A stretch of 64,000 nt of DNA from Eledone cirrhosa (Eukaryota): contig OZ024743.1 of assembly GCA_964016885.1 (NCBI GenBank), forward strand, positions 312,790,001-312,854,000. The letters run 5' to 3'. A model generated the notes under the pieces. The model saw only the letters and a list, made by a program, of their open reading frames with translations, ran no database searches and was not told the origin of the DNA. The position numbers were made by a program, and so were the translations under genes. Below, one piece after another: positions 8,241-63,541 of this stretch (its first letter is position 1; every line of letters begins with the position of its first letter).

Positions 8241-8485
8241 TTAACCCTTTCTTGACCATATTTCTAATGAAATATTCACTGCCCATAAATTTTTTAGATT
8301 ATCAAGAATTTGGTGGGATTTAATAAAATAATTCATTTTTCTGTTATTAAATTAGTTTTGGGAACATAACTTAACAGAGGGTTCTTATGCATAAATTTGA
8401 GAGCAAGTTTAAATTTAGATAAAATACTTTAAAACTGGACAGTTTGGTATCCTAGAACTAGGTGGATTGGTATAAAAAGGGTTAA
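8241..8485. mobile_element. piggyBac-type MITE family A, partly duplicated by the palindrome
   Basis: TTAACCCTTT...AAAAGGGTTAA. Confidence 0.8.
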
Positions 8486-8609
8486 AATAGTTCATGCTGT
8501 CAGAATGAAATTTAGGAGATATGACCAAATTTTGGCAAATGGTATATGTATTGAACTTATCAAGGTGTCTTTAAATATATATGTATTTACATGTGTGTGT
8601 GCGCATATA

Positions 8610-8663
<54 letters not shown>

Positions 8664-8930
8664 TATATGCGCACACACACATGTAAATACATATATATTT
8701 AAAGACACCTTGATAAGTTCAATACATATACCATTTGCCAAAATTTGGTCATATCTCCTAAATTTCATTCTGAGAGCATGAACTATTTTAACCCTTTTTA
8801 TACCAATCCACCTAGTTCTATGATACCAAACTGTCCAGTTTTAAAGTATTTTATCTAAATTTAAACTTGCTCTCAAATTTATGCATAAGAACCCTCTAAT
8901 TTAATAACAGAAAAATGAATTATTTTATTA
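8321..8930. repeat. Palindrome of about 600 bp centred on (TA)n (inverted duplication of flanking DNA)
   Basis: Arms mirror each other around 8636. They differ by 2 substitutions and a 22-nt deletion (8356-8377 is absent from the right arm). The right arm ends at a short (TA)n. Confidence 0.9.
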
Positions 8931-11494
8931 TTTTATATATATATATATATACTCAGCTTTTAGAAAATTATCAACAAAAATAGTACAAAATATCTTAAAT
9001 CTTACAAAAAACACTGTATAATACATATCAAAATTATATTAGAATTATTTAGTTCATTACTATATTATTTAAATTCATTATACTATTAACTATATTTTAA
9101 ATATAATATTTCACTAGTTTACGATGTTTTTTTATATTAAGTTATTTTACTTCTGACATGATATTTATTACTGGAATTACATTATGGGGTGATTCTTTTA
9201 GTCATTACAAAAACAAACAAAAATCTGTTTAAATCACTTTCCATATATTTGTTGTTGACACTGTTGTCAAATGGTTAAGAAGTTTACTTTGCAATAATAA
9301 GGCTCCTTGTTCAATCCTACAGCATATCATCTAGGAGAAACAACATTTATCAGGCACTTAGGTCAACCCAAGCCTTGTAAATGAAATTGAAGCCAGTAGG
9401 TTGAACTGTACCTATAATTCAAAGGGCCATCCTTATCACACACTGTGTTGTGTTGAATCCGTCTTAGATAGGGTACATATGTATGTGGAATGGTCAGCCA
9501 CTTACACATTAATTTCATGAACAAGCTGTTCCATTGATCAAACAACTGGGACACTCATCATCGAAACCAACAGAGGTCTATTTCATTTCATTTTGTGCTG
9601 TTTAAAATTTTGGTTTACTCTGTGACATGGTCACTGACACAATTCCATTTCAGTAGAATTGTGACAGTGACCTGGTCACTGACGCAATTCTATTTCAGTA
9701 GAATTGTGACATTGTCCATGTTGTAGAGAGTACATTAACAAACATTAGAACTATAAATATATATATGAATAGTAAACATATTTTTTGTGTGGTCTTTAAA
9801 TGCCTAATATGACTCTTACATGGTGTAATTGTTTTAATTTCAACATGTAATCTCAGATCAAGACACTTGTCAGACAAGTACAACTGTGGCTAAAATGACT
9901 ATTCCACGGTGTAATTGTGTTAGTTTCAACACATGATCTCAGATCAAGTCACTTGTCAGACAAATACAACTCTGAGATTTCATTATAGTTTTAGAAAATA
10001 TAAACTAAATTATCTTAAGTTGAAAACTATTATGAGATCACTACAATAGACACTGAGATTATTTAAAGAAAATCATATAAATTACATTTTATTTATACAT
10101 TAATATTACAATCTGAACAATATCAAACAAGTATTATATGAATATCTAACATTATTGATAAACACATATCTGTAAATATATAATACAGGATTAACGAAGA
10201 CTCATTAATGTGTATATTATATACATATTGAGTATATAAACTGGTAAACATGTTATATTTATTATACACTAAAAGTAATAGATGTAGACATGAGTGTGGG
10301 GTTAAGGAGTTTGTTTTGCAGCCACTTGGTTTCAGGTTCAGTCCCACTATGTGGCACCTTAGACAAATGTCTACTACAATAGCCTTGTTATTGACCAATG
10401 GAAGCTGCAGAGGTCTGTTGTATGTATGTATGGTTGGGTCGTTGGTGACTAAACCGGCAACCCCACCAAGCTTGCTTGGTTAGGAGGGTGATTTTGGACA
10501 CCCTATGGGATGAAAAACAAGACCTGTCAAAGGGTGGAGGAACTCATGAGAGTCAACAGCTATCTAATAAAATTTCAGAGCAGGAGACTCCTAGTCTTCA
10601 TTAAGACACCTCTCTAGGAAAAGGTCACTCTGATATAAAAATTATCACTTTGTTTGCATCCAATGATGTAGACCAGTTCTTCTTTTAGGGGAAATGCATT
10701 AGATGTTCAGGGAGTGGGATTGGCCCCATGCAAAGCACAGGCATCGCTTGATATGTGACATTTTTTGCGATGCAAGGTATTGCTGCCCATAGGTAAGTCC
10801 CAAGCAGGACTAAAAACCCATGTCTGTAATGCTCATGCTTAAGTATCAAGCATAGACATTACTTGAAATCGAATTGCAACCATCACCATGTATGTATGTA
10901 TTTTTTTTAAGTGGATGTAAAAACGATGATGATGATGTATGTATATATCATCATCATTGTTTAACTTCTATTTTTCCATGCTAGCATCGGTTAGACAAGT
11001 TGTCCCATTTTGAGACAAGTCAGGTCAGATGACTGTGTTTTTCTCATACAGAACTGTTTCTGGCTTGGTTTTCTGTGGCTGGATGCCCTTCCTAATGCCA
11101 ACCCCATTTACAATGTGGAATGGGTGTTTTTTTATTGTGGTACAAAAATGACCACTTTACTGTGTAGTCTGGGTGCTTTTTAGACATGACACCAAAACAA
11201 CCACTTTACATATATATATAACCCTATAAAATAATCATGCTGGTAACACAGCAAAAAAGCCCCCAGTCCACCCTGTTAGATGGTCATTTTGTGTCATGAT
11301 AAAAAGTATCCAGTCCACTCTGTAATGTGGTTAGCATTCGGAAAGGCATCCAGCCATAGAAAACCAAGCCAAAATACAGATCTATATGAGCAAGATATGG
11401 TCACCTGACTTGACTTGTCTCATAATGTGACAACCCATGTAAGTATGGAAAAATAGACGTTAAAAAGTGGTGATGACATGTTCATATATATATA

Positions 11495-11889
11495 TGATCA
11501 ATTCTCGGGCCGGGTGATGTGCTGTTTCCTTGAGCAAGACACTTTATTTTACATTGCTCCAGTTTACTCAGCTGTAGAAATGAGATGATAGGGACTGGGG
11601 TCCCTATCATTCCACTGCAAAGTGGTCGTGGAGATGCCACGGCAAAAAAGCACCCAGCCCACACTGTAAAGTGGACGTGTAGGCACCACGATAAAAAAAG
11701 CACCCAGCATTCACTGTAAATGAGGTTGGTGTTAGGAAGGGCACGCAGCTGTAGAAATCAAGCCAGAATCAGTTCCCGTATGAGCAAGACATGGTCAGCC
11801 GACCGGACACTGCCCACAACAGGACAACCCGTCTAACCCATGCTAGCGTGGAAGAACGGACGTAAAACAGTGATGATGATGATGATGAT
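11495..11889 (+). mobile_element. Same SINE family, head-truncated, longer RTE-type tail
   Basis: Body matches other copies; the tail matches the RTE 3' UTR at 63030-63222; (TA)n on both sides. Confidence 0.85.
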
Positions 11890-15494: not shown

Positions 15495-15742
15495 CGCAAC
15501 TAAATGACTAAAACCAGTAAATAAATATAAGAATAAAAGAATATATCTAACCTTCTGTTAGCAATTCTTCCAACAGTTTTAAATATACTTTATACAAAAG
15601 GCATTTATGTACATATGCACACGCACATATATACACAAACAAAAGCAGTTACAATTTATTTTATGTTAAATAAAATTGAAAACACAAATTGTTTTCATAG
15701 AGATCAGTAAAGAAAATAAAGTAGAAAACTATTAGCACTAAC

Positions 15743-16710
15743 CTTTTTCACTAACACTTTCACTCTCCATATCAGGTTCTTCACAACTAGAACATTCTGG
15801 AGTTGATCGGATTTCGTCATCAGAACTACTAATCGACTGCTGTCTTTGTTTTTTACCTTTCTTGTGTTTATGCGGCTTAGGTGGAGGTGGCCTGACGCAG
15901 TCAGATGGGTCAGAACTCAGAGAATCATTGCGTAACATACTCTCAACTTTACGGCGGTTAGTTCTAGAACTTTTATTTGCAGCTGAATTAGGATCCAAAT
16001 GTTGTTTTCTATCGAAATACCTATCAGTTTCACCTCTATGTTCAATCTCTGATGCTTCTCTGTCATGGTGCCCTGTACTTACTACCTGTATTGATGATTG
16101 ATCAGTGATATATGAACTGTATTTATCTCCTTTCGAACCACGAATTCTTTCCCGATCTCTACTAGGGGATCGACCATCTTTTGTATCTGTAATATGGTCC
16201 TTCCTCTCTCTTTGGTGCTGCTCCCTTGGTAATTCTCTTTGTAAGTCTCCACGATAATCTCGAGAATGTGCTGGATGTTCCCTAATATGATCTCTCTTAT
16301 TTAATGAATCTCTGTGGCTTCTAACTGCTTCTTGTGGATGATCTTTATTTAGATCTGCACGTTGCTGATCTCTTTGGTGACGTGTAGCATTCCGTCGTCC
16401 GTGATGGCCACTAGAAGAATCAACATTTTTCCATTGTTCTTCTTCGAAACCATCTTTTTGGCGAGGCTCTCTAGAAGGCCTTGCATCTGTCTCATGATAA
16501 TCTTGATTATTTAAAACAGGGTCCTGGTAATGTTCAGATTCCAAATTAATTCTCCCTCGACGGCGATCCCCCTCACGGTGTCTGTCTGCCATCCAATCCT
16601 CATGTGGCTCTGCTGTACGTTCAACCCTCTCATTGCGATCGGCAGCTCTTTCTGATCTGTCGGCTCGGTCAGTGCGATGACTTCGGGATGAAAGAGACTC
16701 TTTTGAACCT
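15743..16710 (-). CDS. RIMS: Large internal exon of a RIM (regulating synaptic membrane exocytosis, RIMS1/2 / UNC-10-like) gene; charged linker between the Zn-finger and PDZ domains
   Basis: Open frame GSKESLSSRSHR...MLRNDSLSSDPSDCVRPPPPKPHKHKKGKKQRQQSISSSDDEIRSTPECSSCEEPDMESESVSEK(G). It matches the RIM motif as I recall it (LRNDSLSSDQSESVRPPPPKPH...SSSEEE..STPEYTSC....ESESVSEKG). Acceptor tttctttttcag|A at 16710 (phase 2); donor G|gttagt at 15743 (phase 1). Confidence 0.92.
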
Positions 16711-17629
16711 CTGAAAAAGAAAGAAATTTATTAAATATAGCGCAACTAGAAATTATATGTATTACTGCATATATTAAGTTTTACATACTAAGATACAAAC
16801 AAACATACAAGCATTTTAAAGCTGTTTCCTCTATTAAACTAGGGGTTTCTCCCTGCAGGTCCCATGACAAGTTTCTCCATTTTACCCTACTTTCTTCATT
16901 CCTGTTGACCAACTTTCATTTCATTTTTAGCCATATCCTTCTTGGTTTTCCCCTTCCTCTACTTCCTTCTACATTCATTTTCACCACTCCTCTCAGCCAA
17001 TCATTTCTTGTCCTCAACACATGACCCAGCCATCTCATTCCATTTCTTTTTACAACATTCATCACCAACATATGTGGGATTATTCTGCAAGTTTGTATAT
17101 CTGCATATGTGATAGAGGTCAGAATTTCTGAAAGTGATCATTTTGGTGCCAAGACAAAAAGTGCTCAGTCCACACTGTACAAGGGTCATTTTGGTGCCAT
17201 GACAAAAAACACCCAGTCCACACTGTAAAGTGATTATGTTGGTGTCATGACAAAAAGCACTCAGCCTACACTACAAAATGGTCATTTTGGTGACAATAAA
17301 ATATATCCAGTCCACACTGGGTATCACAACAAAAATAATGAAAGCTTTTTGAATGGTAATAATACTATTATGAAATGGAAGGAGCAACTACAACTATTTT
17401 CATCTGAACAGATTAAACTTAGCAGAGTTTAACTAAATGTTTACATTTATTGTCTAACCCATTAAACAGTGATGAAGGTGATAATGATATTGTATAGCCA
17501 GTAATTTACAGTACTTTAAATTTGTATTCAGCATACCTTTATCCCATTCACGTCTTAGAACTTTTACTTATTTATGGTTTTAAGAAGACAATAACCAGAA
17601 GAAATATTGTTAATATTTTCCTGACTATA

Positions 17630-19938: not shown

Positions 19939-20198
19939 AGCAAAAGAATGAAGAATAACATGGTCAGCTGTACAATAGGGCTTATTTAGTGTAAATAAAC
20001 CCTATTGTACAGCCGACCATGTTATTCTTCATTCTTTTGCTATTATTGCTCCAAGAAATGCCTAAGAACTTTCTTAAACCAGTCACCCAACTAAGGAAAC
20101 TTCTTGTTGAGTCAAACAACGCTGTATGTTAAAACTATCCTCGACACAGAGTACTCTTAACTTCTAGCTGGATTACCTTAACCGATACCTTGTCATCC
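19939..20198 (+). mobile_element. Short relative of the 60.3-61.4 kb element (hairpin plus tail)
   Basis: Hairpin arms at 19937-19988 and 19992-20043. The sequence AAATAAA..CCTATTGTACAGCCGACCATGTTA..GGAAACTTCTTGTTGAGTCAAACAA..GAGTACTCT..GGATTACC..TTGTCATCC aligns with the minus strand of 60325-60545. (TA)n on both sides. Confidence 0.7.
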
Positions 20199-35188: not shown

Positions 35189-35259
<71 letters not shown>

Positions 35260-35347
35260 CCTGAATGTGTAGTTGTAATGACTAAAGAAAGAGCCCTCAA
35301 TATGTAACCATAGAGGTAAATATACTATATCGTGTTATATATATATA

Positions 35348-35933
<586 letters not shown>

Positions 35934-36013
35934 GTTATTGGTTGAATCGGAGGTAACCACAGTAAGTAAGGTACTCAATACATAGCAGAGTATAAAAGTT
36001 TTAATATAGATGA

Positions 36014-36062
36014 GATTCTACAGGACTAGAACTGTTTCATTCTTTAGAAATCATCAGGAATC
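36014..36062 (-). ncRNA. Type I hammerhead ribozyme motif (mirror copy)
   Basis: Exact reverse complement of 36071-36119, within palindrome 35996-36137. Confidence 0.8.
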
Positions 36063-36070
36063 CCTGATAT

Positions 36071-36119
36071 GATTCCTGATGATTTCTAAAGAATGAAACA
36101 GTTCTAGTCCTGTAGAATC
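36071..36119 (+). ncRNA. Type I hammerhead ribozyme motif
   Basis: GAUUC CUGAUGA UUUCU-AA-AGAAU GAAA CAG-UUCUAGUC-CUG UA|GAAUC. Stem I GAUUC/GAAUC, intact core, stem III ACAG/CUGU, GUA cleavage triplet. The 10.1-11.1 position is U.U. Confidence 0.8.
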
Positions 36120-36196
36120 TCATGTATATTAAAACTTATATACATATATATATATACATATATATATATACGTATATATATATATATATATGTATA

Positions 36197-36245
<49 letters not shown>

Positions 36246-36246
36246 G

Positions 36247-36355
<109 letters not shown>

Positions 36356-36372
36356 CTATATATATATATATA

Positions 36373-36558
<186 letters not shown>

Positions 36559-36640
36559 TATATAACACGATATAGTATATTTACCTCTATGGTTACATAT
36601 TGAGGGCTCTTTCTTTAGTCATTACAACTACACATTCGGG

Positions 36641-36702
<62 letters not shown>

Positions 36703-37496
36703 TATGTATGTATGTATGTATGTATCATTAAATATTCAAAGCTAATTAAGTAGATGCTCTGACAAGCTATAAAATAAATAATATAATCATTATATGGTAG
36801 AACTAAGGACAGTTTGATGTGGTTTGATATAAAAGGGTTAAAACTAACCCAATTATATGAAACAGGAAAAGAATTAAGGCAAGAAAGTAAAGAAAAAACC
36901 CCATATAAAGGCAAAACAAATAAAATACTAAATAACATGCATATTATATATAATACCTTAGATTTTTGTTGAAAGTTGAAACTGATACAATATAGACATT
37001 ACTTTACCACCAATAAATAAATGAAGGCACACGTTTACAATATTTGGTAACATCTTGTATTTAGACTTTCACTATGAAAAGGTTGAATATTCACTTTTCA
37101 TTGGTTATTTCAACTAATTTGTCACACACCACTCTTACCAAAGCGGAAGTGAGTAGCTTCAACTTATTAAAGCTTCCACCAGCTCTATTGATTGATTCAT
37201 TGATCTGTCAGTTCAATAATTGCTTAAATACCAGAACAGAATTTTTTTAAACTGATGATTTTTTGTTACCTCATGGATTATTATATCAACTCAAAGCAGA
37301 ATTCTTATTTAACCTTTTCATTACCATATTTCTAATGAAAGATACTGTCTATATTTTTCAAGTAATTTGAAAATAATCAAGAACTTTAAGGTATTTTGTA
37401 AGAGAATTAACATTCTCATTATCAGGCAAGAGTTTGGAACATAACTTAACCAAAGTTCTTACATATAATTATAATGTAAGGCTTTTAGCTAAATAA

Positions 37497-37878
37497 TGGA
37501 GGCACATGGCTTAGTGGTTAGAGCATTGGCCTTGCAATCAATTCTCAGACTGGGTGATGTGTTGTTTCCTTGAGCAAGACACTTTATTTCACATTGCTCC
37601 AGTTTACTCAGCTGTAGAAATGAGATGATAGGGACTGGGGTCCCTATCATTCCACTGCAAAGTGGTCGTGGAGGTGCCACGGCAAAAAAGCACCCAGCCC
37701 ACACTGTAAAGTGGACGTGTAGGCGCCACGGAAAAAAAGCACCCAGCACTCACTGTAAATGAGGTTGGTGTTAGGAAGGGCATCCAGCTGTAGAAATCAA
37801 GCCAGAATCAGTTCCCGTCCCACCCTTGCAAGCAGGGAAAAGGGGACGTAAAATGAAATGATAAAATGATGATGATGA
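37497..37878 (+). mobile_element. Same SINE family
   Basis: A box, deleted B-box region, body and tail. Confidence 0.88.
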
Positions 37879-49710: not shown

Positions 49711-51640
<1,930 letters not shown>

Positions 51641-55158: not shown

Positions 55159-57500
55159 CATCATCATCATCATCATCATCATCGTTTAACGTCCGTGTTC
55201 CACGCTTGCATGGGTTTGGACGGGGGTTTTCCCACTTGAGACAAGAGTGATTGTCTTGCTCGCATAGGACTGTCTGGCGGGTTTTCTACAGCTGGATGCC
55301 CTTCCTAACACCAACCACATTTACAGTGTGGGGCTGGGAGGTTTTTACCGTGTTGCCTACATGGCCACATTTACAGCGTGGACTGTGTGTTTTTTTGTCG
55401 TGACACCTACACGATCTCATTTGTTTCGGCCTGGATGTTGTGGCACCAACATAACTTTACATTGAAAGGGGCGGTGTGGATGGGGTGGGGTGGTGGGACG
55501 GGGGTGTATTTTGTTAGAGATGCCTACTCACTGTAGTAGGTTTTACTTTGCATCAAGGTAAGGCGGGTCTTCTCTATTACTGAGTACCGCCAAAGGTCTC
55601 GGTCCAGTGACATTGTCTTGGAGAGGTGTAAGTGTGTGAGGTCGGAATTTATCAGCTCGTCCCAGGTTTTTCTGGGTCTGCCTACTCCGTAGCTACCGTC
55701 TATCTTTATTGCCCTGCACTTTGTTATACAGCTGTCGTCTTTCATGCGCATCACGTGACCATACCAACGTAGCCTTCTCTCAAGTAAACAACATCTGATC
55801 CCTCTTATTTCTAATTTTTTCCTTAGTTCGCTTATGCTTTGCCGTTCACGTATGTTACTATTACACATCCAGCGGAGCATGCAAGCTTCGTTCCTCTCTA
55901 GTCTGCGTATATCCTCTGCACACAATGCCCAGGTCTCACTGCCATGCAACATTGCTGTTCGTATGCAGGCATCATACAACCTGCCTTTCATTTTTAGGGA
56001 GAACTCTTTAGTGGCTAATAGTGGTATAAGCTCTCTGAACTTTTTGCATCCAGTTCTGACTCTAGCTACTGTACTTTCAGAGCACCCTCCCCCACTGCTG
56101 ATTTTGTCACCCAGGTAACGGAAGCTGTCCACTATTTCTATAGAACCCTCTGCGCAATTGAAAGAGCTAGTATTTTGTGGGCACTTGCTGCACCAGAGCA
56201 CCGGCCACATGTAAAATCTATGTTCTTAGTTAGCTTACCTGTGATCCCACTACATCTTTTATGCACCCATACTTTGCATTTGGGACATAAAATGGAGTTT
56301 CTACCTACGCCTTTCCTACACACTGAGCATGGCCATTTCCCAGAAGGGACCGTCGCCTTATTTTCTTTCTTGCAAACTAGAACTTTAGTCTTAGCCAGGT
56401 TAATTTTAAGCCCTTTTGATTCTAGGCCATGCTTCCATGTTTGGAATTTCTTCTCTAGTTTGGCCATTGATTCAGTTATGAGCGTTAGATCATCTGCGTA
56501 TAGGAGTTCCCATGGGCAGCCGGTCTTGAACTCCACTGTTATAGCCTGAAGGGCAATAATAAATAGTAGGGGGCTAAGAACAGAGCCCTGATGTACACCA
56601 ACTTTTACACTAAACTCTTCACTATATTCGTTGTTAATTCTAACCTTGCTGACTGTTTCTTTATACATGGCTTGTATAGCTCTCACAAGCCATTCATCAA
56701 CACCTAGTTTTCTAAGAGCCCACCAGATAATGGAACGGGGGACTCTGTCGAAGGCTTTCTCCAAGTCAACAAAAGCTAAGTATAGGGGTTTACTTTTAGC
56801 TAGGTACTTCTCCTGTAGTTGTCGTACAATGAAAAGAGCGTCTGTGGTACTTTTGCCTGACACAAAACCGAACTGCATTTCATTTAGATCAATTCTCTCT
56901 CTGATTAGTTGCGCTATAACTTTTTCCGTGACCTTCATGACCTGGTCGATTAATTTAATGCCTCTATAGTTACTCCTATCTAGGGCATCTCCTTTACCCT
57001 TGTAACAGTTAATGATGATGCTGCTACGCCAGTCCTTCGGAACAACCCCATTCTGTATGACTTGGTTTACTATCCGGGTGACCATGGTGTGTCCCACCGT
57101 TCCAGAGGCTTTCAGCATCTCAGCAACTATTTCCGAAGGCCCAGCCGCCTTACTCATCTTCATATCTTTGATTGCCTTACTTATTATACTACCTTCGACT
57201 AACACTGCTGGTCCCTCTATTGGATCGATGTGGGGGCAGACTATCTTTGTCCCATTTATTCTCCTCATTTAGTAGCCTCTCATAGTGACACTTCCAAGCT
57301 ACCTTCTTATCAGCGTCAGTGATGGCAAGTACACCATCATCATTAAGTACACACTTCTCCCCGACAATATCACGGTTTTCCTTGACACATTGCCTAGCAA
57401 TCCTGAACACCTCACGTTTTTGGTCCTCACGTTGTAGAACATGCTTGAACTTCACGTTGTAGAACATGCTTGAACTTCCCGTTGTAGAACATGCTTGAAC
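55159..57500 (-). mobile_element. RTE-clade non-LTR retrotransposon, 5'-truncated, two frameshifts
   Basis: RT motifs (NYRGIKL, QFGF, FVDLEKAFDRV, GVHQGSVLSPLLF, LLYADD), a Cys/His finger, an RTE C-terminus (RRLRWYGHVMR, GRPRKTW), and a 3' UTR ending in (GAT)n. Confidence 0.95.
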
Positions 57501-57849: not shown

Positions 57850-59719
57850 GTTTCAATAGCAGACACAGTATAAAAAAAGACTCAAGGTGGAAGAAAGGGA
57901 TTTAATTGAGAGGGGTGATTAAGATACAGTAGACAGGGAGGGGGTGAAAGTGGGGGAGGTTAAGGCTGTGTGAAAAAATGATGATAATGGGTAATATTGG
58001 ACATAACCATAGAATTTAAACTGGTCAGTGGGAGGCAGGTGATGAATGGGAAGGTGGATATATATATATAAGACATACAAGGAAATATATTGAAAAATTA
58101 AAAAATATATATACACATATGTATACAAGATACATATATGTGCATATGAATCTATACACATACATATAAACATACATATACATATGCACACATATATACA
58201 TACACACACACACACACACATACACATATGAATGCTCATACACACATAAAAATATGCGTATATACATACACATAAAAATACGAGCACATATCTATATAAA
58301 TACATGCCTACACACAGACATGCATATATACATACAGATATGAATATGAGTATACATGTTCCAATATATACATATATATACATGATTGACAGGTGGATGT
58401 GTGAATACTGTGAGGGGTTGATAGTGATGGTGATGGTGGGGATGTTGGTACAGTGGAAATGAGTAAAGAATATAAAATGATGTAGTTTAAAATTTAAAGA
58501 ATTAAGTACAATGAAGATTATTGGAATATAAAATTATAGAATATGAAGTGTAGAGCTGTGATATCTAAGGGTGGTTGAATGTATGATAATAGTGATGGTG
58601 GAAGTTATGATGGGTGAATGCGTGGTGGCAGGGTGATATTGCTGTTAAGTAGATATGTGAAATATATAAGGTGTCACGACAGCAACCATCACACACTGTA
58701 AATGTGGTTGGCATTAGGAAAGGCATCCAGCTGTAGAAAACAAGCCAAAATCAGTTCCTTGTATGTGAATCAAGTTCCTCTGACCTAATTTCTCACAAAG
58801 GGACTGCCCGTCCTACCCATGCTACCATGGAAAATGGATGCTAAACGATAAGATATATGAATATAACATTTTCTCTGTTGTTTTAAATTTCTGCCATTTT
58901 TGTTTTCCTCATGTCTATTTAGTTACAAATTATAACAGGATTTACCTAGAAGGATCATATACATAAATCAACAAAGCTACTTACTATGTAAAGAAAACAT
59001 AGTTTTTATATATATTGCTATATAGTGACGATGTAATTTTAAAGTGATAGTGCTGATGCTATAACAAAGTGCACATTCTGTAAACTGGTTGGTGTTAGGA
59101 AGGGCATTCATAGAAACCAAGTCAAATATGGCATGTATGAGTATAACATGGTTCTCAGACCAGTCTCAGGTTGTGACAACCTATCTAACCCTTGCTAACA
59201 TGAAAAAGAAACAGATGTAAAATGAAGCAGTATGTTATTTGAAGACTATAACAATGCAAAATGGATGGTAGATTTTGTCCATTTCACATTGTTGTAGTCT
59301 TTAGATAACATAATTTACCATGAAAATGCAATAGTAAATATAGAGTAATGTAAATGCTAAAGGGTTAAATTAAAATGGAGACAGCTAAGTTGCGATTTCT
59401 ATGGATGTACAGTTTCAAAGATGAGGACTCTTTACTCTTGTTAAAAATACAACTAGTGCTAATGCCATGGTGAAAATGAGCCAGTACAGGTACCAAGCTA
59501 TTGAAACCCTCTCAACTAAACGTAGTGATGACATTCTTCAATCATGTCAAGGACATGACAAGCTGTAGTTCTTATTTCTTATTTAATAGATATCCTGAAA
59601 AGTGACTGGCATTCGGAAGGGCATTCACTCAGAAACTATAATAAAACTGAAATGTATATAAGTGAGATATGGTTCGCTGAACCATTTAGGAGGAGAATAA
59701 TTCTGATTAAGTACTGACT

Positions 59720-59922
59720 TACCATATATACTCAAATATAAGCTGAGGAATATGTGACCAAAAAATTGATGGTAAAATGGGAGGTTGGCTTATATATGCC
59801 ATCTAAATTATGTGTTGATTAGCTGCCTCAGTTTATAAATGTATTTTCTCCTATTTCTCAAACATAAAATAGGAGCAGGTTGGTTTATATTTGGATAGGT
59901 TTATATTTGAGTATATATGGTA
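59720..59922. mobile_element. Tc1/mariner-superfamily (Tc2/pogo-like) MITE
   Basis: TA|CCATATATACTCAAATATAA...TTATATTTGAGTATATATGG|TA: 20-bp TIRs with a TA target site. It interrupts an RTE-type tail remnant. Confidence 0.75.
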
Positions 59923-60273
59923 GTCTGTAATGATCAGTTCAACCAATGCCAGCATGGAAAAACAGACATAAAATGCTGCTGATGATGATGATGAGGATAT
60001 TGACAACTGATAAAATTGTTTAGCATTTCATTTATCGAAAGAAGCAAGCTGTTCAGCTCTGTTATGTAATATAACAAAAGATGTGATGTTTAGGTCACAG
60101 ACATACTGTGTATAGAAGAGAGCAGATTGTCAGACCATATTGAGCATGGTAGAGATATATAGAACATACTGTGTATGTGAGCAGGGCCAGATTTACTGGG
60201 GGCCAGTGGAAGCGAATGCCCTGGGCCCCTACATCAAACAGAGCCTCTTCTTCTCTCTCTCTCTTCCTGCTTA

Positions 60274-60304
<31 letters not shown>

Positions 60305-60547
60305 TTATTACTATATATATATATGGGATAACAAGTTATCGTTATAGGTAATCCACTTAGAGGTAATCCGGTTAGAGTACTCCACGTTGTGGATGGTTTT
60401 AACGTACGGCTTTGTTTGACTCAACAAGATGTTTCCATAGTTATGCAGCGAGTTCGCGGTAATTTCTATGCAGGTTATACTTGGAGTAATAAAAGTTAAA
60501 GAAAGAAGTGTAACATGGTTGGCTGTACAATAAGGGCTTTATTTAAA

Positions 60548-60658
60548 GTACTGACAATTGTTTCGTTGATCAGGTGAGTCTAGAGTTCACTAATCGCTTG
60601 AGGTTGCGTCAATCGATCTCCAATACATTGTTTACCTCTGGTCAACACATCAGAGCAC
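60548..60658 (-). ncRNA. Mirror copy of the 61201-61311 hammerhead-like motif
   Basis: Left arm of the 60493-61366 inverted repeat; same core and stems. Confidence 0.62.
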
Positions 60659-61200
60659 GTAGATATGAAAATAATTCACTCGAGGCAAGACTTATATAGA
60701 AGAGTAGCGTAAAACAAAACAGTAACATCAATAATAGAGCAGCGTATAATTAAAACAACAACATCAATAATAAAACATGTATGGTAAATAGATAGAGAAG
60801 CTACAGATGTAAAAAGTGACAAGTAAGATACAATGTAGGGTACATTAAAAAATAATAATAAGAAGAAGAAAATGAGGAAATGGAAAATACAAGGAAATAA
60901 AAGAAATGAAAGAGTGATATAGTGTACTTAGAGTTAGATTTTAGTAGTTCTTGAGAAAGTGTTCCTTGACATGAGAGGCCAGATTTTAGAAGTAGATAAA
61001 TTTGTGTGGAGGGTCCGGTAAAATAGAAAACAATAAAATAGAGATTAATTGATGTATACTATTTATGGGTTGACAGGTCATTTGATAAACGTTCATTGTA
61101 GATGTTGGTTGCTCTATCTTAATGAGGTTGATGTTACTGTTTTGTTTTACGCTACTCCTATATATAAGTCTTGCCTCAAGTGAATTATTTTCATATCTAT

Positions 61201-61311
61201 GTGCTCTGATGTGTTGACCAGAGGTAAATAATGTATTGGAGATCGAATGACGCAATCTCAAGCGATTAGCGAACTCTAGACTCACCTGATCAACGAAACA
61301 ATTGTCAGTAC
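61201..61311 (+). ncRNA. Type I hammerhead-like motif, A9->U variant, extended stem II
   Basis: GUGCU CUGAUGU GUUGACCAG...CUGAUCAAC GAAA CAAUUG UC|AGUAC. Palindromic CAAUUG stem III and GUC triplet. Confidence 0.62.
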
Positions 61312-61380
61312 TTTAAATAAAGCCCTTATTGTACAGCCAACCATGTTACACTTCTTTCTTTAACTTATATATATATATAT

Positions 61381-63220
61381 ATGAAGATTGGGAAGGCAAC
61401 CGGTCCATAGGGTATAGCTGCCGAGATGCTGAAAGCATTTGGGTCGGTAGGTCACACCATAACCACACGTATTGTTAACCAGGTAATACTAGAGGGTGTC
61501 ATACCAAAGGATTGGTGCAGCGGCATCATTGTCAACCGCTACAAGGGTAAAGATGATGCACTAGTTAGAGGAAACTATAGAGGTATAAAGCTGATGGACC
61601 AGGTCATGAAAGTAACGGAAATAGTTATAGCACAGTTGATTAGGGACCGGGTAAAATAGATGAGATGCAATTTGGGTTTGTACCAGGAAAAGGCACCACT
61701 GATGCTCTCTTTCTTGTGAGGCAGTTACAGGAAAAGTACCTAGTTAAAAGTAAGCCACTCTACCTGGCTTTTGTCGATCTGGAAAAAGCCTTCGACAGAG
61801 TGCCCCATGCTATAATCTGGTCGGCTCTTAGAAAACTAGGAGTAGATGAATGGCTTGTGAAAGCTGTATAAGCCATGTATAAAGGAGCAGTCAGCAAAGT
61901 TAGGGTTAACAATGGCTATAGCAAGGAATTTAGCATACAGGTCGGTGTCCACCAGGTCTCTGTTCTTAGCCCTCTCCTGTTCATTATAGTATTGCAGGCA
62001 ATAACAGAGGAGTTTAAGACCGGATGCCCATGGGAATTCCTATATGTGGATGATCTCACACTTATAGCTGAATCTATGGTAGAACTAGAGAAGAAATTCC
62101 AAACAAGGAAGCAGGGACTAGAAAGGTTCTCAAAATCAACCTGACAAAGACTAAGGTCCTCCTCATAAGTAGACGAGAAAACTGAACCCAGATCCCCTCA
62201 GAGAAATGGCCTTGCTCAGTATGTAGGTAAGGTGTAGGTAGGAACTCCATCCTCTGCCCGAAACAATGGGTACACAAGAGATGTAGTGGGATCTCAGGGA
62301 GCTAAGCTAAGAATGTAGGCTTTACATGTAGCAGCTGCACCAGGACAGTAAGCAGCAAATGGCCACAGGAAACAAGCACCACCAAACTCTGAGAGGGCTC
62401 TGTAGAAACATTAGACAGCTTTTGTTACCTAGGTGACCAAATTAACAGTGGAGGTGGGTGTTCAGAAAGTAGAGTAACCAGGGTAAGAATGGGATGGAAG
62501 AAGTTCAGGGAGCTACTGCCACTGTTAGCTGCAAAAGGCTTTTCCCTCAAAATGAAAGGTAGACTGTATGATGCGTGCATACGAACAATAATGTTACATG
62601 GTACTGAGACCTGGGCGTTGTGTGTAGAAGACTTGTGTAGATTAGAAAGAGATGAAGCTTGCATGCTCCAATGGATGTGTAATAGTAATATATGCGAATG
62701 GCAAAGCATAAACGAATTGAGAGAGTGAGCATAAGAGGAATCAAATGCTGTGTGGAGGAGAGGAGGTTCCATTGGTATGGAGATGTGATGCATATGAAGG
62801 ATGACAGCTGCATAAAAAGGTGCAGAGCACTAGAGGTCGATGGAAGCCGCAGAGTGGGGAGACACAAGAAGACCTGGGATGAGGTGATAAAAGCCGACCT
62901 TACCCAATTACACCTCTCAAAGGCGATGACACAGGAACATGACCTCTTGTGTCGCGAAGTAATACAGAAGACCTGACTTCCCACGGGTACAAGCCGAAGC
63001 TGAAGCATATAGACAATATGCCCCCACCCACTGCAAAAAAGCACCCAGCATTCACTGTAAATGAGGTTGGTGTTGGGAAGGGCAACCAGCTGTAGAAATC
63101 AAGCCAGAATCAATTCCCGGATGAGCAAGACAAGGTCAACCGACCAGGCACTGCCCACAACAGGACAACCCGTCTAACCCATGCTAGCGTGGAAGAACGG
63201 ACATAAAACGATGATGATGA

Positions 63221-63222: not shown

Positions 63223-63265
<43 letters not shown>

Positions 63266-63268
<3 letters not shown>

Positions 63269-63541
63269 ATTAGAAATGTAAGCTATCGCCGTATTTTGAC
63301 TAAAGTAATTAAAGAAATTATTTAGCCTGATAGTGGGGTTAAGAACTCTCGGAGAAATGGAAAAAGATGAGTATTGACGTACATGCATGTACTCATCTTT
63401 TTCCATTTCTCCAAGGGTTCTTAACCCCACTATCAGGCTAAATAATTTCTTTAATTTCTTTAATTTCTTTATTCAAAATACGGCGATAGCTTACATTTCT
63501 AATAATTTCAAACCCACATGCTGTTTCGAAAATATTCTTAC
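63266..63541. mobile_element. Palindrome plus tail element within (TA)n; no clear HHR
   Basis: Near-perfect inverted arms 63266-63373 and 63390-63506, a tail of about 35 nt, and (TA)n on both sides. Confidence 0.55.

Follow-up and report, generated by a model that had tools for sequence, protein, structure and literature searches.

The window analysed here is a 64,000-nt stretch of the Eledone cirrhosa genome (assembly GCA_964016885.1, contig OZ024743.1, positions 312,790,001 to 312,854,000 of the forward strand), and all coordinates are counted from its first letter. An element of ~1 kb (60326-61365) is set in the window between two (TA)n runs. It contains inverted arms of 238 nt each (60494-60731 and 61128-61365) that are 96.6% identical, or 96% identical over 243 nt when the TA overlap is included. 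Eight differences lie within the arms and one more at the TA edge, and divergence since insertion is ~1.7% per arm. An earlier note on this DNA had described arms of about 250 bp; their inverted arrangement is confirmed and their length is corrected to 238 nt. The left arm extends outward, into a tail that the same note had put at about 170 nt on one side only and that measures 168 nt, and inward, by 396 nt; the right arm extends neither way. The features of the element, and of a second copy of its family in the window, are as follows.

19940..20198, plus strand: a further copy of the family, diverged from the element and 71-74% identical to its tail and distal arm
60284..60324, no strand: (TA)n target, left flank, read from the sequence
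60326..60493, minus strand: one-sided tail, 168 nt, between two inferred reverse transcriptase (RT) start sites
60494..60731, minus strand: left arm, being that portion of the long copy (the one with the tail) whose repeat forms the inverted arm
60548..60658, minus strand: type I hammerhead-shaped motif of the long copy (core 60653-60647, U9 = 60647; helix II region 60646-60565; predicted cut 60553/60552)
60732..61127, minus strand: T-rich sequence that continues the long copy upstream, with no assigned ORF
61128..61365, plus strand: inverted shorter copy, beginning at an internal site
61201..61311, plus strand: type I hammerhead-shaped motif of the inverted arm (core 61206-61212, U9 = 61212; helix II region 61213-61294; GAAA 61295-61298; palindromic helix III 61298-61305; predicted cut 61306/61307)
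61224..61279, plus strand: GT...AG stretch of 56 nt within helix II, a candidate intron (left-arm twin 60580-60635, minus strand)
61316..61321, plus strand: AAUAAA, 10 nt beyond the predicted cut, then a U-rich run (left-arm twin 60538-60543)
61366..61381, no strand: (TA)n target, right flank; next to it lies a fragment of an unrelated RT-type LINE

Build, coding content and surroundings of the element

No target-site duplication is readable at the element, the insertion lying inside (TA)n. The tail holds a 7-nt local duplication, which is missing from the second copy, and a small terminal hairpin at the extreme 3′ end of the element (60328-60341, minus strand), which is partly broken there. 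A longer local duplication, of 36 nt, occupies 60716-60777. A short hydrophobic ORF starting at 60516 on the minus strand is interrupted by stops in the element, and the second copy has the same terminal stop. A scan for bacterial promoters found three where 5.3 were expected, and was uninformative.

No RT or GIY-YIG ORF was found in the 802 nt of the 5′-truncated copy. Eight peptides, taken from the element and from its second copy, had no Pfam match, none of eight and none of three candidates scored in homologous-protein searches, and the best scores in Atlas protein searches were 0.77 and 0.82, under 0.9. The sole phmmer match (1.84 billion proteins, E 9e-4), a leucine-rich repeat protein, was rejected as spurious. 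A by-eye likeness of 60940-61058 to the C-termini of Hydra endonucleases was also rejected; N, L, L, L and K fell in register, and the conserved C, C, E and N were missed. Short words of the element gave chance matches only against the Naiad, Chlamys and Hydra consensus files, in which line breaks can hide words. Since no ORF was found, over this part of its length the family probably does not act autonomously and borrows an enzyme from elsewhere.

The window holds other repeats as well. The LINE fragment at 61385, which abuts the right (TA)n flank, has a read depth >1e5. Fragments of abundant, RT-encoding LINEs lie at 56138-57268 (minus strand), 50146-50733, 55524-56225 and 61385-62500, one of them with a 376-aa open frame. 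A two-armed (TA)n insertion of an unrelated family is found at 63264-63540, with arms of ~111 nt and a 37-nt one-sided tail of textbook length; on its minus strand, GAAAC and a short palindrome precede a CUGAUAG word. At 8321-8930, a 261-bp, 99% near-perfect palindrome (8376-8897) is centred on (TA)n and belongs to a repeat distinct from the element family; no hammerhead halves were found in the right order in it. Head-to-head pairs of short repeats surround long (TA)n runs at 1383-2289, 35257-36643, 35350-37862 and 10945-11869. The window also includes a 329-aa open frame at 15738-16727 (minus strand), which we take to resemble an exon of a RIM-type presynaptic protein gene.

A hammerhead-shaped motif in each arm

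In both arms the motif reads outward and begins with stem I GUGCU/AGUAC (a 5-bp helix I) and a CUGAUGU core. The distance from G10.1 to C11.1 is 82 nt in both, closed by GUUGACCAG/CUGAUCAAC with one C-A mismatch, and helix II is followed by GAAA, the palindromic helix III ACAAUUGU and C17. All of these parts had been listed in the earlier note and are present in both arms, and the AAUAAA that it placed downstream is there too (61316-61321, 10 nt past the predicted cut). Its stem II of about 80 nt is corrected to a 9-bp basal helix bearing a 64-nt insert, and the bulged hairpin that this insert forms is only marginally better than chance (z -1.8 and -1.6; 26 and 28 of 500 shuffles as stable).

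The motif possesses C3-G8, GAAA, A15.1-U16.1, H17, G10.1-C11.1 and three helices (helix III as a dimer only) among canonical elements. It departs from the CUGANGA core, which has A at position 9, by a U in both arms. A motif scan that allowed any base at position 9 found just these two sites in 64 kb, while 30 dinucleotide shuffles yielded three loose matches in total and no strict one. A search of Rfam at E<=5 over 59500-62500 returned no hammerhead family and four weak, unrelated matches, so the expectation that standard hammerhead searches would miss the motif is borne out for Rfam.

Folding was predicted for two motif copies together, using the letters of the read majority. The reads have mostly A at 61203/60656, which converts a G-U of stem I to A-U, so that all of helix I is Watson-Crick; this hints weakly that the fold was retained in the family. 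The cofold minimum is a dimer, with an 8-bp intermolecular helix III and helices I and II intact, in agreement with the earlier suggestion that the palindromic stem III is typical of dimer-forming PLE hammerheads; a single copy is not predicted to form helix III. PLE motifs are expected to act as dimers (PMC4209133, PMC6765202). In the best monomer fold, 2.9 kcal/mol below the hammerhead fold, the core is base-paired to the 3′ side of helix III, and the left-arm monomer is misfolded, at 4.3 kcal/mol below. The two motifs lie on opposite strands and therefore cannot dimerise in cis within the insertion, and a read-through RNA of the insertion snaps back with 233 arm-arm pairs. Because of these two properties, cleavage by this insertion's copy is predicted to be unlikely. 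Read ends piled at 61303/60556-60559 in run X5 were considered as ribozyme cuts and rejected; they fall on the AATT of helix III and were taken as restriction ends of a RAD library.

Position 9 has a defined role in the catalytic core, where A9 pairs with the general base G12 by three hydrogen bonds in a sheared G12-A9 pair (PMC2553840). A full pairwise scan reported low activity for mutants of the CUGA region, except for a C3-G8 swap, in a text that does not name A9 (PMC9901934). Natural core variants of the hammerhead exist and some are slow, a position-9 change not being named in the text of that paper (PMC3088659). By analogy with this chemistry, U9 would remove the sheared G12-A9 pair, and for that reason the motif is likely slow or inactive.

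Among the closest published relatives in shape are the hammerheads of the Hydra clade. For example, Hydra-1_aMil, Hydra-1_oBim, Penelope-1_SK and Penelope-2_NV are of type I with G10.1-C11.1 (PMC8557442 File S2), and the clade shares with the element a helix II of 7-9 bp, a short palindromic helix III and (TA)n insertion (PMC8557442); the helix II length and the (TA)n insertion are not clade-specific. The clade is also characterised by protein features (RWK, DKT, a CxCX5C linker, an EN without CCHH), and this copy contains neither RT nor linker. In contrast, 82 nt separate the core halves of the element; in the published table the corresponding span is <=~26 nt for animal entries and 53 nt in the longest plant entry, from a spike moss (counted by eye), so that the element's helix II is ~3 times the longest animal example given there (PMC8557442 File S2). 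From the cut to the end of the element there are also ~225 nt, against tens of bases in the clade, and its U9 is found in 0 of 34 rows. The minimal hammerheads of metazoan PLEs are similar in their palindromic helix III, larger helix II and short helix I, in occurring as opposite-strand pairs 100-700 bp apart, and in the low activity expected of them (PMC4209133). They differ from the motif here, which lacks the extra base between positions 9 and 10.1 described in that source and has U9 and a long insert (PMC4209133).

The long insert admits a reading in which the hammerhead is gated by splicing. The stretch at 61224-61279 starts with GT after AG and ends in UAG, and if it were a retained spliceosomal intron of 56 nt, only the spliced RNA would fold into a compact ribozyme. 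Once it is removed, helix II has 9 bp and its loop 8 nt, the size seen in Hydra-1_oBim, and a splice-like frame arose in 0.39% of 20,000 loop shuffles under a rule set after seeing the sequence. PLEs are known to retain introns (PMC8557442), and a 75-nt intron of D. virilis ends at hammerhead helix I (PMC4209133). The candidate is short for an intron, however, and has a weak pyrimidine tract, while across helix II a stronger donor-like word is read from the opposite strand, which means that the splice-like signal may simply arise from the helix. A separate hairpin forms within the insert, helices I and II fold equally well with or without the 56 nt, no such joint appears among the 15 of 46 read joints listed, and splicing would not restore A9. 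We consider a splicing switch quite improbable.

Copies, read depth and junctions of the family

Genomic contigs and reads from four public runs, representing at most two samples, were mapped on 60000-61700. A flank contig matches the locus with 0-1 differences in 244 nt. The summed depth in X1, expressed relative to unique flank as a ratio and not as a copy number, is 1e4-3e4 in the tail, ~4-6e3 at the left-arm hammerhead, 1-3e3 immediately upstream of that and 30-80 past 60855. The last step is a ~25-fold drop and lies 530 nt from the tail end. The family is thus clearly very abundant and truncated from one end. Pattern scans for further copies in non-animal collections (metagenome, genome and viral contigs) gave no matches.

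Junctions were counted from the 15 of 46 joints and 12 of 28 joint-letter rows that were listed. Among these joints are at least ten inversion junctions of the same layout as the element, each at a different place. At six of the ten listed, the arm on the tail side ends before leaving the tail; the two arms would then have no sequence in common, which excludes fixed terminal inverted repeats. The inverted arm extends past the predicted cut at eight of the ten and starts 9 nt short of it at the other two.

The second copy (19940-20198) has the same build on a smaller scale, with a 157-nt tail and inverted arms of ~48 nt. Its two end sites match those of the element to within 1-2 nt. Both of its arms end ~7 nt past the predicted cut; it therefore has no hammerhead and cannot test U9. 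Together, the two read junctions and this copy, with ends 7-9 nt past the cut, hint that some templates were cut. The tail of the second copy contains an open frame of 37 codons with a hydrophobic start, for which no homolog was found. Two blocks, 60516-60540 and 60405-60430, are 83-92% identical between the two copies, compared with 71% overall; the former sits just upstream of the internal start site and the latter in the tail. Their conservation makes them candidate enzyme-binding sites.

These observations bear on the possibility that the element is a MITE or other DNA transposon, with long TIRs, a TA target duplication and a hammerhead shape acquired by chance or capture. Long inverted arms in a TA context and the lack of an ORF would suit such an origin. 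In both copies in the window, however, 157-168 nt separate the left arm from the end, and arm length changes from 238 to ~48 nt between them, which a TIR of fixed length does not allow. The at least ten different junctions, six of ten without overlapping arms, and the one-sided depth gradient point the same way. A DNA-transposon origin, which the earlier note had named among the outcomes that would refute its reading, is disfavoured by the variable junctions and one-sided tail; it is largely refuted by the former and is extremely improbable.

A second alternative keeps the PLE-type insertion route and takes the family itself to be a small RNA like the non-LTR retrozymes, with an active hammerhead in which U9 and the long helix II form a working variant. 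Non-LTR retrozymes are likewise non-coding and high-copy with a type I hammerhead (PMC7229834; bioRxiv 10.64898/2026.07.22.740005), and they have been proposed to derive from PLEs (bioRxiv 10.64898/2026.07.22.740005). The ~25-fold fall in depth at 60855 would then mark the end of a high-copy unit of ~530 nt, possibly circular, and the lack of an ORF and the perfect stem I of the read majority fit as well. So do three inner ends located 7-9 nt past the predicted cut, among the listed joints and the second copy. On the other hand, the 802-nt long copy repeats neither the tail nor a second, tandem hammerhead, and at this locus those 802 nt hold no direct repeat of a unit, in contrast to the tandem monomers of a non-LTR retrozyme. 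The core is off-consensus, eight of the ten listed inverted arms cross the cut site, and A9 is kept in all 34 of the published PLE rows. A retrozyme-like family is accordingly improbable.

Insertion route, the origin of U9 and significance

In all structural tests run, the element works like an EN+ PLE insertion. It has an inverted, 5′-truncated copy with a variable junction, a one-sided tail between two fixed ends (168 nt, and 157 nt in the second copy), and a type I hammerhead shape near the 3′ end, with U9. Insertions of pLTR EN+ PLEs show the same head-to-head truncated copy, tail at one end, (TA)n context and hammerhead near the 3′ end (PMC8557442, PMC3846280). PLE insertions often have an inverted 5′-truncated copy and a tail of 30-40 bp at one end, and several PLE clades favour (TA)n targets (PMC8557442, PMC3846280). 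The element differs from the published examples compared in its tail, which at 157-168 nt is 4-5 times longer than 30-40 nt, and in lacking an ORF or direct pLTR in this copy.

A biochemical precedent is provided by PAc (Poseidon of Anolis carolinensis). In this system both DNA strands are cut and extended, and RT starts at two internal sites whose spacing equals the tail (PMC11167929). Mutants of the PAc hammerhead insert normally (PMC11167929). The element resembles PAc in the two fixed RT start sites that would bound its tail and in a template left uncut through the hammerhead (PMC11167929). Unlike PAc, its sites are spaced ~160 nt apart and no enzyme is tied to the family. PAc has an AC-rich stem-loop at its start sites; only weak folds are found at those of the element.

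On this precedent, a Penelope-type reverse transcriptase/endonuclease would write the element into a (TA)n repeat, with two priming events ~160 nt apart, at fixed sites of a single uncleaved RNA. Both DNA strands would be nicked and extended, and the tail would be the stretch between the two RT start sites, as the published PAc biochemistry suggests for both steps. One cDNA would start at 60326 and run for 802 nt, the other at the site equivalent to 60494 and run for 238 nt, and the two would be joined head to head. Because both cDNAs traverse the hammerhead, the template would have been uncut, and because the long cDNA also runs ~210 nt past the AAUAAA, the template would not have been polyadenylated there. 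Four observations underlie this scheme: the outer ends are fixed in two diverged copies, the inner junctions vary, depth falls from the tail end, and the targets are TA. The element is most likely a two-armed, 5′-truncated copy of a very abundant family, inserted by PLE-type two-site priming on uncleaved RNA and carrying a U9 hammerhead that is likely slow or inactive. The PLE reading of the earlier note is supported in part, as regards the two arms of PLE type, the hammerhead-shaped motif, the dimer-only helix III and the escape from Rfam.

The presence of U9 in both arms means that the RNA template carried it. It is no proof of ancestry, since five further letters common to both arms depart from the read majority. 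Read differences at the locus were available as 40 listed of 280 rows, all 40 of them at >=75.6% in at least one run. Among these 40, positions 60656 and 61203, only 9 nt from position 9, are present and 60647 and 61212 are absent. Given an inferred ranking of rows by share, this suggests only that A9 is not near-fixed in the family, its share being under roughly three quarters of the reads that are >=80% alike, and U9 would then not be private to the locus.

Three accounts of U9 may be given. That it is an activity-lowering substitution at the level of the lineage, tolerated because insertion does not depend on cutting, has a little better than an even chance of being correct. Private decay of a minor template is possible, if doubtful, and a compensated active variant is unlikely. 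All 34 Chlamys and Hydra PLE hammerhead rows of one published table have A9 (PMC8557442 File S2), and neither a natural U9 hammerhead in a PLE nor an intron within helix II turned up in a literature search, although supplements may list U9. One preprint admits CUGAUGU as a relaxed search word (bioRxiv 10.64898/2026.03.07.710320). Relative to the literature compared, the layout of the element is known, and the helix II length, U9 and the 157-168-nt tail are new.

A bolder version of the active-variant account is that the family fixed an active U9 core, helped by the large helix II or switched by the 56-nt intron, while priming at two sites 160 nt apart. This is decidedly unlikely; if true, it would represent a natural, active A9U hammerhead, possibly the first with its fold set by splicing inside the ribozyme.

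On the preferred reading, of two-site priming on uncleaved RNA, the element adds one more genomic footprint of this kind of priming, with a spacing of ~160 nt that is far outside the published 30-40 nt and that constrains how a PLE enzyme holds its template. Since neither Rfam nor short-loop descriptors catch an abundant family of this kind (82-nt helix II, U9), counts of animal hammerheads are likely low. If U9 is family-wide and the motif dead, the family would serve as a natural test of whether PLE hammerheads need to cut at all; if the U9 motif is alive, it would widen the known hammerhead core.
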